Source of the DNA: a virus
DNA length: 5,652 nucleotides
UHGV virus genome: UHGV-0478246
Reading direction: 5' to 3' (one strand)
The translations under genes and the position numbers were made by a program. Below, one piece after another: positions 1-5,652 of this stretch (the first letter of the stretch is position 1; each line of letters starts with the position of its first letter). Below the pieces are notes generated by a model, which had not been told where the DNA came from, ran no database searches, and saw only the letters and a list, made by a program, of their open reading frames with translations.

Positions 1-416
1 TGTTCCTCTGTTAGTTCTGTCCATATAATGCCGTGCAGATGTATTCTTTTGGTATTGTCGTGTCCCATTTCTGTGATTAGCCAGTGTTTGAGTGGTTTCT
101 TATACTTTTTCCACCATCGTTTTCTGAATAGGCTGACTGCTTTTTGAGGTGTTTTGTTCGGTTCGTTTTCGTCATACTCTAATTTTTTTAGGCTTTCTTC
201 GGAGAACGTCAGCGTTGCAAATATAGTATTTTTTTGATTGGATTTTATTTCTTCCATCAATCTTACTCTCCATTCATTTGCTTTTGCGCGTCTGCATTCT
301 TCGCAGTGTCCGCATGGAATTTGGATCCATCTCAGACGACGGTCTCTTATTCTTTTAGCGTTTTCGTTCGATTTGGCGTACTTTGGATTCTCTATGGTAC
401 TTGGATATAGACACAC
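1..416 (-). CDS. Replication initiation protein VP4 (rolling-circle Rep), N-terminal portion. The ORF runs off the left edge and continues at 5652. The likely start is GTG at 416..414. The alternative is ATG at 450..448 followed by a +1 frame change near the A5 run at about 421-425.
   Basis: Minus-strand translation gives (V/M)CLYPSTIENPKY...IPCGHCEECRRAKANEWRVRL (the Cys cluster typical of microvirus VP4). It continues to NTIFATLTFSEE (RCR motif 1, about 204-221) and KRIHLHGIIWTEL (HxH motif 2, about 21-41). No in-frame ATG lies upstream of the Cys cluster, and the frame is closed by TAA at 443..441. This ORF is absent from the supplied track because it crosses the window edge. Confidence 0.8.
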   Translation of the reverse strand, partial: MCLYPSTIENPKYAKSNENAKRIRDRRLRWIQIPCGHCEECRRAKANEWRVRLMEEIKSNQKNTIFATLTFSEESLKKLEYDENEPNKTPQKAVSLFRKRWWKKYKKPLKHWLITEMGHDNTKRIHLHGIIWTELTEE

Positions 417-454
417 TGTTTTTAATTGAAATTTGCCCCTTTAAAATCATTTTT

Positions 455-2145: not shown

Positions 2146-4191
2146 TTATAAGTTTGGAATTTGTTTTGCTGACATTACTCTACGTGCTGTTACGTCGAAC
2201 GCCACTTGGACCCAGAAGTTTTGCGAGCTCAGTCTCGACTCCGCGAATATATTGTTATATATTGTCGGATCGATGTACGTCGACGCGTTAGAAATTGTTT
2301 TATTTATCCCTTCTTCGTATATTCTATTCAAACACATGAATGCTAAAGGCATTCCCGCGGCAAATTCGCCGTACGTTTCGTTTACGTCTGTCGTGTATTC
2401 GATCCATGACGGTTGTTTTCCTAATGATTGGTACGTGTGGTTGAAGTTTTCAGTGGTTTCTGTGCTCCATGCTGCTGCTTCTTCTGCTATCAGTTCTTGA
2501 AATCCGATTGCGTCCAATGTCGGCTTATGGAAGTCATCCATATTTTGCAGTCTTGTCCACCATTTGTTGCCTTGGCTGTAATCGATTCGGGGTGTAATCG
2601 ATCCCAAGGCCATGATCATGCTTGGCTCTGTGCATTTGATTTTCAAGCCCCTTCCGGATTTGTACATAGTTGCGACTCCTCGTCCGGCAAGTGTTCCTAA
2701 CGGTTCTTCATCTGTTGCTGAGTTTGATACGATTTCGTCGAATGCGATTTCGCTCTGCATTCCGCCGCAGAATATAGGAGATTCGGGTAGTGTCGTGCTT
2801 CTGACTCCGTATGTCGCTTCTCTCCATGCTTGGTAAGTACCATCCGTAATTGCTACGCGATTCAGCATGTTGAAGATCTTTTTTTGGAGGATCAGAGCAT
2901 CCATCGTAAGTTTTCCATCGCTCACATCTACCGCTGTGATCGCGTTGATCCCTCCGGTCGTCCCGTCGATCCACTCGGTGTTCAGCCAGTTGTTGAACCT
3001 GTCGCTAAGGTATGTTTTTACTGCCAGTCCTGCTTGTGAATACCATGAATTTGAACTGGTATAATATTTCGTGCGGTTATAGTTCGGTAGTCGTAAGGTT
3101 CCTATTGCAGCCGCATACGGCATTTTGTTGTCTTTTACTGTGTACACCGCAGAACTGGGTGCCGCTAAGATTGCCGTCCGTTCGTCGTCGATGTTTTTTA
3201 ATGGAAATTCTGTTAGTTTGATCTTCTGGTTGTCCGGCATTGTTAAATTGAATTCCCCGGCTATGTCTTGATTGTATGCAATTTTGATTGCTTTTTTGAC
3301 TTTGTACGCGTAAATGTTGGTCGCCTTTTTCGGGTTGTCCGGTGCCTTGAGTCCCAGCGCTTCCGGGTCTGTTCGTTCGAATACGAAGGAGTCTCCGAGT
3401 TTTGTCAGTTTGTTGGTTTTTGCTGTAGGGTTTTTCGGATCATTCGTTAAGAATTGTATTTCATTGACTTCCTCAGGTGAGATTTTTTCCTCGAATTCCA
3501 GTTTGATGTACATTGGTAAATTATCTGATGGACTGATTGTGTATGTTACACTTGAGTTGGTTAGCCATTCTTTAGTCCATTCGACTCCGCTTCCTACACT
3601 GATTTTCTTCCAAATATGGTTTATTCCGGTGATTACGTATGCGTTTTCTTCCTGTTTGTTGGCGTAATAGTTTTTGAATATGTCCCAGTACGCCAGATTG
3701 AATATCGCAGGAAATCTTCGGAGGTATTGATTGACTCTGGAGTGTCCGAATCCTTTTATTCCCAAGTATGAGAGTAGCGAGCTCGGATTGACCTGTCCTC
3801 TGTTGGTGTCGTCTTCATAGATCGATGCATTGGCTGTATATACTTGAAATTGCGGCAATAGTACCTTACTCATGTTCAACCCTACTCCTAAAGCGTTGTT
3901 ATGCAGTGCTGCTATATAGAGTCTGATCGGAATTACGAATACGTCGATTTGATGTTTGAAGCTGCCGAATACAGGTCCGGTTGTCGGCAGTGTTTTTACT
4001 TTTGTCGTGATATCGATGTAGAATGTCGTTCCGTCCATACCTATCTGGCACCAATAGGGAACGATTGTGCCGCATGCTTGTGATGTTCGGATTATTTTTC
4101 CTACGTTATGCGATGATCTACCGAAATTGGGTAGATATACTTCCATTTTGCTTTCGCTTCGGATTCTGTCTCCTCCTAATGTTTTTTTCAT
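2146..4191 (-). CDS. Major capsid protein VP1 (Microviridae F/VP1 family), 681 aa. The second Met, at codon 16 (about 4146), is a possible alternative start.
   Basis: The N-terminal signature 'FGRSSHNVGKIIRTSQACGTIVPYWCQIGMDGTTFYIDITTKVKTLPTTGPVFGSFKHQIDVFVIPIRLY' matches the microvirus pattern F.LSH...T...G.L.P....GD.F....R..P...P...FFVP.RL.W. The C-terminal 'NRVAITDGTYQAWREATYGV' matches the conserved GG.Y.DW....G region. Its size is larger than gokushovirus VP1 and typical of Bacteroidetes-associated microviruses. Confidence 0.9.
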   Translation of the reverse strand: MKKTLGGDRIRSESKMEVYLPNFGRSSHNVGKIIRTSQACGTIVPYWCQIGMDGTTFYIDITTKVKTLPTTGPVFGSFKHQIDVFVIPIRLYIAALHNNALGVGLNMSKVLLPQFQVYTANASIYEDDTNRGQVNPSSLLSYLGIKGFGHSRVNQYLRRFPAIFNLAYWDIFKNYYANKQEENAYVITGINHIWKKISVGSGVEWTKEWLTNSSVTYTISPSDNLPMYIKLEFEEKISPEEVNEIQFLTNDPKNPTAKTNKLTKLGDSFVFERTDPEALGLKAPDNPKKATNIYAYKVKKAIKIAYNQDIAGEFNLTMPDNQKIKLTEFPLKNIDDERTAILAAPSSAVYTVKDNKMPYAAAIGTLRLPNYNRTKYYTSSNSWYSQAGLAVKTYLSDRFNNWLNTEWIDGTTGGINAITAVDVSDGKLTMDALILQKKIFNMLNRVAITDGTYQAWREATYGVRSTTLPESPIFCGGMQSEIAFDEIVSNSATDEEPLGTLAGRGVATMYKSGRGLKIKCTEPSMIMALGSITPRIDYSQGNKWWTRLQNMDDFHKPTLDAIGFQELIAEEAAAWSTETTENFNHTYQSLGKQPSWIEYTTDVNETYGEFAAGMPLAFMCLNRIYEEGINKTISNASTYIDPTIYNNIFAESRLSSQNFWVQVAFDVTARRVMSAKQIPNL

Positions 4192-4194
4192 GGC

Positions 4195-4629
4195 TTATTT
4201 TATTTGATTGTTTTTCATTTCTTCGTTTACGTGCAGGATGAATATGAATGTTGCGGTCAGGATGTCTTCCCATTCTTTTTTAGCTATGTGTTTTTCCGCT
4301 TCTTCTTTAGTGTTGAATTCCTTTGCGTTCAACATCGAGCCGCACATTGTGATCACCCATTTGTTTTTCTTGTTGCGGATCAGTACGAATATGCCGTTTT
4401 TCGATTGTACTCTTTCTTCGATTTCGAGGTTTACGCTTTCGATTTCTTCTTCTTTTTTTCCGCTTTCGGCAAGTAGCTGATTTCTGAATTTTTTGTCCAT
4501 GTCGCTTGATTTTTTTTGTTGTTGATGCTTCGATTGTACTTTTTCTTCGATTTCGAGGTTTACGCTTTCGATTTCTTTTTCTTTTTTCTCGCTTTCGGCA
4601 AGTTGCTGATTTCTGGATTTTTTGTTCAT
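4195..4629 (-). CDS. Hypothetical protein, 144 aa. The N-terminal half is two 43-aa tandem repeats (K/E/Q-rich, coiled-coil-like). The C-terminal roughly 65 aa form a small globular-looking domain.
   Basis: The ORF is given in the track. Its stop lies 3 nt before the VP1 start. The repeat is visible at both protein and DNA level. The C-terminal 'GIFVLIRNKKNKWVITMCGSMLNAKEFNTKEEAEKHIAKKEW' loosely resembles a YegP/DUF1508-type beta-beta-alpha unit. That resemblance is weak. Confidence 0.65.
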   Translation of the reverse strand: MNKKSRNQQLAESEKKEKEIESVNLEIEEKVQSKHQQQKKSSDMDKKFRNQLLAESGKKEEEIESVNLEIEERVQSKNGIFVLIRNKKNKWVITMCGSMLNAKEFNTKEEAEKHIAKKEWEDILTATFIFILHVNEEMKNNQIK

Positions 4630-4672
4630 GTTACTTGATTTTTGTTGTTGTCGATACTTCGATTGTGTCGAT
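4401..4672. repeat. Direct tandem repeat with period 129 bp. There are two full copies (4401-4529 and 4530-4658, about 90% identical) plus a 12-14 nt partial third copy (4659-4672).
   Basis: Read directly from the sequence. 'tcgattgtac' recurs at 4401 and 4530, and 'tcgattgtgtcg' at 4659. The aligned copies differ by a few substitutions and small indels. Confidence 0.85.
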
Positions 4673-4801
4673 TTTGATGCCGCTTGCTTTGAGGTGGTGC
4701 TTATGAGTGCATCCTTGCTCTATGATTACGGCAGCTGCGGCGCCGATTGCGGCTGCTATTACCGCGATCCATTTTACGATTTTCTTTACTTTTTCATTCA
4801 T
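4631..4801 (-). CDS. Unannotated small ORF, 56 aa, with one predicted N-terminal transmembrane helix. Candidate membrane or lysis protein.
   Basis: My own translation, checked base by base: MNEKVKKIVKWIAVIAAAIGAAAAVIIEQGCTHKHHLKASGIKIDTIEVSTTTKIK*. The ATG at 4801..4799 overlaps the ORF119 stop (ATGAATGA). The TAA at 4633..4631 lies 1 nt before the ORF144 ATG. It fills what would otherwise be the only unexplained 164-nt gap in a tightly packed genome. It is below the 60-aa track cutoff. The GC-rich patch at 4729-4768 is its Ala/Gly-rich hydrophobic core. Confidence 0.55.
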   Translation of the reverse strand: MNEKVKKIVKWIAVIAAAIGAAAAVIIEQGCTHKHHLKASGIKIDTIEVSTTTKIK

Positions 4802-5153
4802 AGTTCAGTGATAATTGAGTGTCTGTGTTTTTGATCATTACTATCCTTCTGATAATAGGTTCGTACAGTTGTTTTCTTTCGTTGTATATCCAGTTGCTTA
4901 CCTCGTAGAAGCTGATGCCGGTTCTTTGTGGTTTTCGAGTATCTACGTATTCCTTGTCGAATGTTTCTCCGTCTTCTGTCACGTAGAATGTTCCTTCGTA
5001 TTGGAAGTTTCGTCTGGATACTGCTTCTGCACCGATCAGTTTTGTAAGATTAGTGGATCTATCTCCGATGTCTCCTCTTCCTTTGGTGAATTTATTATCC
5101 TGTTTCTGGTCAATATATTCTCTATTTTTCTGGTCGCAAATTCCGTTTCCCAT
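4794..5153 (-). CDS. Hypothetical protein, 119 aa, immediately downstream of VP4.
   Basis: The ORF is given in the track. Its ATG lies 3 nt after the VP4 TGA. Its stop overlaps the start of the 56-aa ORF. No motif recognised. Confidence 0.55.
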   Translation of the reverse strand: MGNGICDQKNREYIDQKQDNKFTKGRGDIGDRSTNLTKLIGAEAVSRRNFQYEGTFYVTEDGETFDKEYVDTRKPQRTGISFYEVSNWIYNERKQLYEPIIRRIVMIKNTDTQLSLNYE

Positions 5154-5156
5154 ATT

Positions 5157-5652
5157 TCACGAATTAATTGTTCCTTCTTTATGATCAGGTCTGCATATGC
5201 CTTGCATATTTCCTTCTTTTCTCTTTCCGTCATATTTTTTGATCGATTGCCAATATTTTACTGCGTGTACATACTCTTCGTATTGTTTTATTGTTTCCAC
5301 TTTGATAGGAGTTTTGTTGTAGTACTTTACTTGTTTTTCCTCTTTTATGATCCGGAGGGCTTCGCGTTCTTGATCTGTCCATATTTTTTGCTTGTAGTAT
5401 GTCGGTAGTGCTACTTTTATTCCTGATTCTGTTCTGTATGTTTCTTCTGTGAATTTATCCTGATATCTATGCCTGTTGAGTGTGTTTTTGTTTATGTAGT
5501 TTATTCCGATTTTTTTTGAGGTGAATATTTTTCCGTTGAATTCAGGGTTGCTTTCGTCTTTTTTCGTTATGTATTTTATGATGTAGTTTATTGTTCTTTC
5601 GTTTACTTCATACCCGAAGAATACCCAGCCGTACCCCCATTCTTTTTCGAAT
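5157..5652 (-). CDS. Replication initiation protein VP4, C-terminal portion. It enters at the right edge and stops with TGA at 5159..5157. Total length is about 303 aa if joined to 1..416.
   Basis: Minus-strand translation gives FEKEWGYGWVFFGYEVNERTINYIIKYITKKDESNPEF... The stretch NYIIKYITK is the RCR motif 3 (Y-x-x-K-Y catalytic tyrosines, about 5562-5585). The spacing from motif 2 is about 35 aa across the junction, as in microvirus Rep proteins. Confidence 0.8.
   Translation of the reverse strand, partial: FEKEWGYGWVFFGYEVNERTINYIIKYITKKDESNPEFNGKIFTSKKIGINYINKNTLNRHRYQDKFTEETYRTESGIKVALPTYYKQKIWTDQEREALRIIKEEKQVKYYNKTPIKVETIKQYEEYVHAVKYWQSIKKYDGKRKEGNMQGICRPDHKEGTINS

Follow-up and report, generated by a model that had tools for sequence, protein, structure and literature searches.

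A 129-nt tandem duplication lies across the boundary between two genes of the microvirus genome UHGV-0478246 (here the window, the whole 5652-nt stretch of DNA that we analysed), and the annotated start codon of the downstream gene, ORF144, appears to be a product of it. The conserved start of a widespread 101-aa microvirus protein corresponds to codon 44 of ORF144, which corrects the annotation, and the 43 residues before it are probably a drifting passenger. Overall, we think it probable that the duplication arose by slippage at a 9-nt direct repeat, ACAATCGAA, that its two copies then underwent complementary degeneration, and that the 39- and 78-nt inserts found in sister genomes are its descendants.

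A tandem duplication across the boundary of ORF56 and ORF144

The window is a complete circular microvirus genome. It is identified as a microvirus by its Phage_F capsid, and as complete and circular by a 311-aa Rep ORF that is intact across the window ends. All of the long ORFs are on the minus strand, and their order on the coding strand (Rep, ORF119, ORF56, ORF144, capsid, ORF107, pilot) is identical in deposited faecal Microviridae, including MG945452. The Rep orthologues of relatives carry PF23343 (REP_ORF2-G2P), the 402-aa ORF matches DNA pilot proteins in PHROGs, and the capsid shares 46-58% identity with VP1 of deposited Microviridae by tblastn. A 56-aa gene is also called at the position of ORF56 in relatives. 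Megablast of the whole window against deposited phage genomes gave no match, and the protein collection held no capsid closer than 95% amino acid identity. A search for the host through prophages was uninformative, the sole genome match being a free 5673-nt contig in an Acinetobacter assembly, and a promoter and terminator scan of 4150-5250 did no better than shuffles. The genes at the boundary and next to it are listed here.

2146..4191, minus strand: major capsid protein, F-type, 681 aa (Pfam PF02305 Phage_F, 3.5e-9, above the curated cut-off; PHROG 514 major head protein, 6e-41)
4195..4629, minus strand: ORF144 as found, extension plus core (ORF call)
4195..4500, minus strand: putative ancestral 101-aa gene (the ORF144 core), just upstream of the capsid gene; conserved small microvirus protein
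4631..4801, minus strand: ORF56, a small, strongly conserved protein with a hydrophobic N-terminal segment; its final 28 nt lie in copy A

Tandem Repeats Finder reported a period of 129 at 4400-4666, with 2.1 copies, 91% matches, 0 indels and a score of 450. Aligned on the minus strand, 4658-4530 and 4529-4401 are identical at 117 of 129 bases and differ at 12. When adjacent blocks were compared in a sliding scan, identity reached 0.907 at offset 129 (start 4400), against a maximum of 0.76 over all offsets of 30-399 in 30 dinucleotide shuffles. The units are arranged head to tail with no spacer, and the duplicated unit takes in the last part of ORF56, a single intervening base and 100 nt from the start of the next gene onward. 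A sequence-only reading of this DNA had proposed a 129-bp tandem duplication that straddles a gene boundary, duplicates a start codon, preserves the frame and is not recent. Both the repeat finder and the self-comparison at the 129-bp offset bear this out, with the coordinates correct; 129 is a multiple of 3, and 12 differences have accumulated between the copies. The parts of the array are as follows.

4400..4666, minus strand: whole array, 267 nt, two units of 129 nt with the 9-nt endpoint repeat present a third time (Tandem Repeats Finder; block-identity scan)
4530..4658, minus strand: copy A, the upstream one as the coding strand is read; contains the final 28 nt of ORF56 (..STTTKIK, TAA), one C, then ATG and 97 nt of ORF144
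4401..4529, minus strand: copy B, downstream and inside ORF144; degenerate duplicate of the ORF56 tail, then the putative ancestral start and the consensus N-terminus
4631-4633, minus strand: ORF56 stop TAA, in copy A (read from the sequence)
4627-4629, minus strand: annotated ORF144 ATG, in copy A; reads ATG AAC AAA AAA TCC AGA
4498-4500, minus strand: Met44 ATG, in copy B; reads ATG GAC AAA AAA TTC AGA (MDKKFR)
4501..4629, minus strand: net insertion of 129 nt between the ORF56 stop and the putative ancestral start; open, in frame and beginning with ATG, a 43-aa N-terminal extension

The ORF144-type N-terminus of copy A has the sequence MNKKSRNQQLAESEKKEKE..., and the k-mer GTACAATCGAAGCATCAAC marks the 129-nt form. 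At the protein level, the earlier reading of a 43-aa internal repeat was right about the frame and too generous about the length: the peptide repeat is 34 aa (M1-K34 and M44-K77), joined by the nine residues HQQQKKSSD, which are the former ORF56 tail in another frame. The same reading had attributed the read-through to loss of the ORF56 stop. That stop is indeed gone from copy B (TAA>CGA), but it lies out of the ORF144 frame, where it reads AGT AAC ATG (S N M), so its loss was unnecessary for read-through and has no bearing on it; upstream, the ORF144 frame stays open to 4719. A role of the repeat as an iteron or origin was ruled out, as it is lineage-specific and coding. Nor does the array have the character of a phase-variable contingency locus: its units of 129 and 39 nt are multiples of 3, and every state observed is in frame.

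Homologues of ORF144 begin at Met44

A search of 5.8 billion proteins with ORF144 returned 2563 homologues, and 110 of the best 120 are exactly 101 aa long. There is no 144-aa homologue among the 2563, an informative absence since a two-copy protein would score highest. Among the best 120, all of the 101-aa proteins begin M-[DSNE]-K-[KR]-F-R-N-Q-L-L-A-E-S-G, which matches ORF144 at Met44 and not at Met1. This shared N-terminus indicates that Met44 is the ancestral start of ORF144 and that the annotated ATG is a duplicate standing beside the ORF56 stop, the reverse of the earlier view in which the first ATG was the real start and the internal one its mirror. The 129-nt unit is single-copy in 18 of 18 related IMG/VR genomes and in L032, and the duplication is thus specific to the lineage of this genome. 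Variation in the copy number of the 129-nt unit itself (one versus three copies), which had also been anticipated, was not found among the relatives compared.

Two sets of proteins that might have passed for further cases were rejected. The 119-aa length class (P0121 and others) arises from an upstream in-frame ATG inside the ORF56 tail, and P0062 (147 aa), P0185, P0189 and P0194 are truncated or chimeric contigs. The 101-aa protein had no significant match in Pfam or PHROG, and its fold had no neighbour in the PDB (best E about 1); the fold matches in BFVD were only uncharacterised microvirus proteins, and an exhaustive profile search delimited a narrow family of 46 representatives. AF2 models ORF144 with a single long helix over residues 3-56, covering both the extension and the original N-terminus, followed by a low-confidence linker and then a core of a beta-sheet and two helices with pLDDT of 86-92.

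Complementary differences between the two copies

We polarised the 12 inter-copy differences with relatives, and the derived changes are distributed as follows.

29 nt before ATG (ORF56 tail), copy A: 1 derived change, TCA>TCG, synonymous in ORF56
29 nt before ATG (ORF56 tail), copy B: 4 derived changes, T3C, C15A, T26C and A27G
100 nt from ATG onward, copy A: 7 derived nucleotide changes, which fall in 6 codons and all alter the amino acid
100 nt from ATG onward, copy B: 0 derived changes

In the ORF56 frame, the changes in the copy B tail give V>A, T>K and TAA>CGA. In the coding part of copy A the changes include F5S, L9Q and G14E, and the new residues S5, Q9 and E14 each occur in 0 of the 120 best homologues; K30, from R30K, occurs in 1 of the 120 and K18 in 2. 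Copy B has the family consensus residue of these 120 homologues at all 6 of the differing codons. The derived changes are thus 1 and 4 in the ORF56 tail of copies A and B and 7 and 0 in the part belonging to the 101-aa gene (Fisher p = 0.010), on small counts, with 12 differences in total and an all-non-synonymous set of changes in copy A expected 25% of the time under neutrality. Both of the original genes are under purifying selection, with dN/dS relative to L001 of ~0.05 for ORF56 (dN 0.023, dS 0.465) and ~0.19 for the 101-aa gene. Between the copies dN/dS is ~1.3, compared with 0.17-0.4 for genes between genomes, the range for the 101-aa gene being 0.19-0.4. From these patterns of change, it appears that ORF56 draws its working end from copy A and the 101-aa gene its working start from copy B. 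The dN/dS of ~1.3 in the upstream copy, together with its lost invariant residues, argues against a functional internal protein repeat.

This outcome resembles the duplication-degeneration-complementation (subfunctionalisation) model, reportedly formulated by Force et al. in 1999, in that copies A and B have each lost a complementary part and both must be kept. It differs in that the unit is a 129-nt junction fragment and not a gene, in that its 'subfunctions' consist of one gene's 3' end and the following gene's 5' end, and in that the outcome is an insert between genes and not two paralogues. The window thereby offers a clean, small-scale case of duplicates that degenerate in complementary fashion where two genes meet, in a genome that has hardly any sequence to spare. 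The insert has drifted by 11 changes in 129 nt, an amount similar to half the dS between the window and its nearest genomes (0.06-0.32). Gut Microviridae evolve at more than 1e-5 per nt per day (PMC5656937), and at that rate the drift of the insert would correspond to roughly years to a few decades.

A 9-nt direct repeat at the ends of the unit

The length of the array is 2 x 129 + 9 nt because the 9-mer ACAATCGAA stands at all three unit boundaries.

4658..4666, minus strand: ACAATCGAA, first endpoint repeat, inside ORF56 (codons ..T I E..) (read from the sequence)
4529..4537, minus strand: ACAATCGAA at the junction of copy A and copy B (read from the sequence)
4400..4408, minus strand: ACAATCGAA where copy B ends (V-Q-S-K codons in the putative ancestral protein) (read from the sequence)

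Removal of one unit gives a reconstructed single-copy ancestor of 5523 nt. It has only 26 exact direct repeats of at least 9 nt at 30-400 nt spacing, set against ~2 million possible position/length combinations, and the ACAATCGAA pair is one of these, with a spacing of exactly 129. Nearly all relatives conserve the upstream ACAATCGAA (ORF56 ..D T I E V..). Only near relatives have the downstream one (GTA CAA TCG AAA = V Q S K, codons 31-34) in full or almost in full, and the single-copy genomes L027 and L031 have both halves, again in full or almost so.

An endpoint 9-mer of this kind reads as the usual mark of duplication by slippage or template switching at short direct repeats, a route that is general in bacterial, plasmid and phage DNA. 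Like other slipped-strand duplications, this one has no spacer, carries the 9-nt repeat at both ends and at the new junction, and has relatives without the event, and the array subsequently contracts and expands. Unlike the typical case, its unit straddles the border of two genes, and the ssDNA genome that carries it is very compact. Taken as a single event it is an ordinary slippage duplication, mechanistically nothing unusual, and our literature search on tandem duplications in Microviridae or phiX174 found nothing relevant.

We propose that replication slippage or template switching between two ACAATCGAA repeats 129 nt apart, in a circular ssDNA microvirus of ~5523 nt, would have copied the gene boundary, namely the tail of ORF56 with its stop, the single base that follows, and the 101-aa protein from its start through codon 33. 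One copy of each half would then have been enough, leading to complementary degeneration of copies A and B. The redundant halves would have become a 129-nt drifting insert that presents an ATG directly after the ORF56 stop, with the downstream gene in frame. Ribosomes initiating at this first ATG, coupled to ORF56 termination, would produce a 144-aa protein whose 43-aa helical N-terminal extension is probably tolerated and unconstrained, and initiation at Met44 may additionally yield the normal 101-aa protein. In sister lineages, the same duplication would have undergone a 90-nt in-frame internal deletion and then gains and losses of a 39-nt unit, giving their 39- and 78-nt inserts.

Sister genomes with 39- and 78-nt inserts

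The nearest relatives of the window are not single-copy. L019, L020 and L021 have 78 additional nt at the junction of ORF56 and the 101-aa gene, and L024, L025, L026, L028, L029 and L033 have 39 at exactly the same junction; L033 is also the nearest genome by capsid. The 39-nt unit, ATG RAC AAA AAG followed by CATCAACAACAACAAAAATCAAGYAAC, again includes a start codon, and 114- and 127-aa proteins arise where gene callers picked the first ATG of genomes of this type. The expectation of length variation between strains was thus sound, with proteins of 101, 114, 127 and 144 aa, but the unit that varies in relatives is 39 nt. The genomes of state-0 relatives measure 5524 nt and that of a +39 relative 5565 nt (after the assembler overlap was trimmed), and the window measures 5652, or 5523 + 129.

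We found the 129-nt form in no second genome, whether by a junction pattern in IMG/VR and JGI metagenomes or among the homologue proteins. The sole JGI match to the junction pattern, L022, shares no similarity with the window and was discarded as a chance match of a degenerate pattern. The exact pattern of the 39-nt unit had no match in IMG/VR. In a neighbour-joining tree of 1220 nt of flanks, the window groups with all expanded genomes and the single-copy L027 (bootstrap 52%), the other single-copy genomes falling outside, and the states 0, +39 and +78 occur within one subclade. L034 is close to the window in capsid and not in the 101-aa gene, and recombination is evident there.

The 39-nt unit and the 129-nt unit begin at the same base, and the junction of L029 equals that of the window minus 90 nt, with 2 differences in 39. 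Of the derived bases in copy B, T3C, T26C and A27G are also seen in internal units of the 39-nt genomes and never in a true ORF56 tail. C15A is confined to the window, and L024 retains TAT where the other internal units have CAT. Judging from these shared bases and boundaries, we lean towards a single 129-nt duplication in a common ancestor, followed by a 90-nt deletion in the sister lineage and then by gain and loss of 39 nt. We suggest more tentatively, at rather less than an even chance, that the window represents the ancestral full-length stage of a remodelling (+129, -90, +/-39) that would have given the whole subclade a new translated N-terminal segment. The new segment appears, from its sequence, to be partly the 3' end of the neighbouring gene read in another frame.

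The 129- and 39-nt units may instead have arisen independently at an A-rich boundary that is a recurrent hot spot for slippage, with parallel transitions or later recombination behind the bases that they share. We regard this as unlikely, though it deserves to be taken seriously. The single-copy state can give rise directly to a 39-nt duplication through a 2-nt microhomology, L024 (P0004) still has TAT, as in the ORF56 tail, and array copy number does change, with 0, +39 and +78 in one subclade. The tree is weakly supported at 52%, the state-0 L027 is nested inside the expanded clade, and mosaicism exists. Independent origin accounts poorly, however, for the finding that three of the four derived bases of the copy B tail are common to the internal 39-nt units and occur in no true ORF56 tail, and for the left boundary of the 39- and 129-nt units falling at the same base. 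Moreover, the expanded genomes are all in one subclade, and the 18 more distant genomes are single-copy.

If the common-ancestor history is true, in-frame steps throughout would imply an obligatory coupling of downstream translation to the ATG beside the ORF56 stop, and the subclade would be a natural series for how compact ssDNA phage genomes gain coding sequence. The window and its sister genomes form a natural allelic series of 0, +39, +78 and +129 nt, which is usable for the study of translational coupling, of how far N-terminal extensions are tolerated and of the packaging limits of gut microviruses, a group that is still hard to culture.

Start choice and the N-terminal extension

In every genome compared, a single base separates the ORF56 stop from the first ATG (TAA C ATG), an arrangement that, by its sequence, is typical of translational coupling. 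Leaders are A-rich at all genes of the window, with a Shine-Dalgarno motif before none. The two ATGs of ORF144 likewise have the same A-rich leader and no Shine-Dalgarno motif, and both lie in unstructured sequence, with predicted accessibilities, as the probability of being unpaired, of 0.75 and 0.76. Isoforms from the two starts, as suggested previously, are possible on these features. We infer that the main product is the 144-aa protein with a tolerated 43-aa extension, and the 101-aa form may be made too. The +129, the inferred -90 and the +/-39 events all preserve the frame, as would be required with initiation at the first ATG; the probability that the first two events (+129 and -90) were both in frame by chance is about 1/9.

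In phiX174, two proteins, A and A*, are made from in-frame starts in one microvirus gene, and A* is conserved and functional. ORF144 is similar in having two in-frame ATGs, from which a long and a short product are possible, and differs in that its upstream start is lineage-specific and its extra segment unconstrained. Among relatives the two starts and the segment between them are not conserved together: the 101-aa form predominates, the segment evolves neutrally, and in L020 and L021 an internal ATG of the extension has become ACG. Overprinting, the origin of new coding sequence from another frame, is classic in Microviridae, as in genes E and K of phiX174. The joint HQQQKKSSD is comparable in being a former ORF56 tail read in a different frame, as are the ..HQQQQKSSN units of sister genomes; unlike overprinting, the new reading is on a duplicated copy and does not overlap the working gene.

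An adaptive origin, in which the doubled N-terminal helix or the second start was selected and the 144- and 101-aa proteins have different roles in the manner of A and A*, seems improbable to us. It would fit a period that is a multiple of 3, an open extension with equivalent ATG contexts, the long AF2 helix over residues 3-56, and the retention of in-frame extensions in sister genomes through some divergence. It fits poorly with the upstream copy, which has lost three residues invariant in 120 homologues and has a dN/dS of ~1.3, with the lack of the extension in nearly all family members, and with the change of an internal ATG to ACG in L020/L021. Against it, too, is the probability of ~1/9 that two events are in frame by chance. 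A tolerated, drifting extension remains the reading that we prefer.

Assembly artefacts and recombination between genomes

The second copy could in principle be a chimera, formed in the assembly of two strains or during MDA amplification, as microvirus sequences often come from amplified viromes and the 129-nt form occurs just once across all the collections searched. We consider this very improbable. The 12 differences fall in a pattern that needs evolutionary time. The coding part of copy A has residues found in 0 of 120 homologues and so is no piece of another working strain, and the copy B tail shares derived bases with genomes assembled independently from other samples. At the k-mer sizes in common use, a microhomology of 9 nt probably falls short of the length that would produce a spurious edge, and the genome closes as a circle, with the Rep ORF intact across the ends.

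Least credible of all is illegitimate recombination between genomes, by which a single-copy genome, up to codon 34 of the 101-aa gene, was joined in front of the internal unit of a 39-nt-type genome: although the product sequence would match, with AAG|CAT at the junction and no need of a later T>C change, and recombination does occur in the group (L034), such a joining does not account for a breakpoint placed exactly at a 9-nt direct repeat that already existed with 129-nt spacing, and the donor N-terminus would need three substitutions never seen in the family (120 homologues).

ORF56 and the extended form of the 101-aa protein

The gene upstream of ORF144 encodes a small protein that is under very strong conservation, with a dN/dS of ~0.05 against the related genome L001.

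4631-4801, minus strand: ORF56 (MNEKVKKIVKWIAVIAAAIGAAAAVIIEQGC...), with a lysine-rich N-terminus, then a hydrophobic stretch, then Q-G-C

A search of Pfam and PHROG returned no family match for ORF56. Its composition looks like that of a signal peptide, or of a lipoprotein-type or membrane anchor, and the product may act in lysis or sit in the membrane.

The 101-aa protein that forms the core of ORF144 also occurs in a 119-aa form, which we found in five of its database homologues (P0121, P0123, P0126, P0128 and P0143, with P0121 representing 158 member sequences) and in the related genome L032 (1883-2242). This form starts at an upstream in-frame ATG that lies within the ORF56 tail (MASKSTQSKYQHQQKSSN followed by MDKKFR). 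ORF56 and the gene for the 119-aa form would overlap by ~50 nt, in different frames, in the genomes that carry it.

In some other database proteins (P0185, 184 aa; P0062, 147 aa; P0189; P0194), the N-terminal half of the 101-aa protein is fused to further sequence. In P0185 this half runs on into a stretch that matches the pilot protein's middle part. In P0062 the N-terminus begins again after the C-terminus of the 101-aa protein. These four are probably chimeric or short contigs, although they could, less probably, represent deletion variants without the capsid gene.

Recombination between lineages

The genome L034 is among the closest to the window by capsid (94% at the amino acid level), but its 101-aa gene is clearly unlike that of the window (..EEREVSENGP..). 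This pairing of a close capsid with a divergent 101-aa gene indicates that lineages within the window's group recombine.

The Rep and ORF119 region

The window lacks terminal redundancy and its ends fall inside the gene for Rep, the replication initiator. Since the Rep frame spans both ends, we conclude that the window is a complete circular genome cut within Rep.

5160-5652 joined to 1-440, minus strand: Rep, 311 aa, open across the window ends
5036-5233, minus strand: 65-aa ORF in a different frame, overlapping the Rep end and the ORF119 start
L032 1332-1520: 62-aa ORF (MTER.KNEICKGYADLIIRKEQLIREIW...), an open frame similar to the 65-aa ORF

The 65-aa ORF may be an overlapping gene; its counterpart is also open in L032, which is 85%-related to the window.

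Two related genomes, L026 (834-2108, 424 aa) and L030 (2341-3456, 371 aa), have a single gene call in which Rep is fused to ORF119, the next gene; in others the two are separate proteins of 250 and 119 aa. The fused call may reflect a variant with a frameshift or read-through, or else an error in sequencing.

Host clues and short repeats

L032 (NZ_JACWEU010000076.1) is a complete related microvirus genome; it forms a free scaffold of 5673 nt, including several N bases, within an assembly of Acinetobacter lwoffii. Contamination or co-sequencing of a phage is a likelier origin for it than a prophage, and for this reason it gives no host identification. At the seven gene starts of the window we found A-rich leaders throughout (7/7) and no Shine-Dalgarno-like motif (0/7). 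Hosts such as Bacteroidota initiate without Shine-Dalgarno pairing, and leaders of this kind fit such hosts.

Tandem Repeats Finder reported two weak short tandem repeats in the window.

561-608: 24 nt x 2.0, score 61, in the pilot gene
5084-5135: 23 nt x 2.2, score 62, in ORF119
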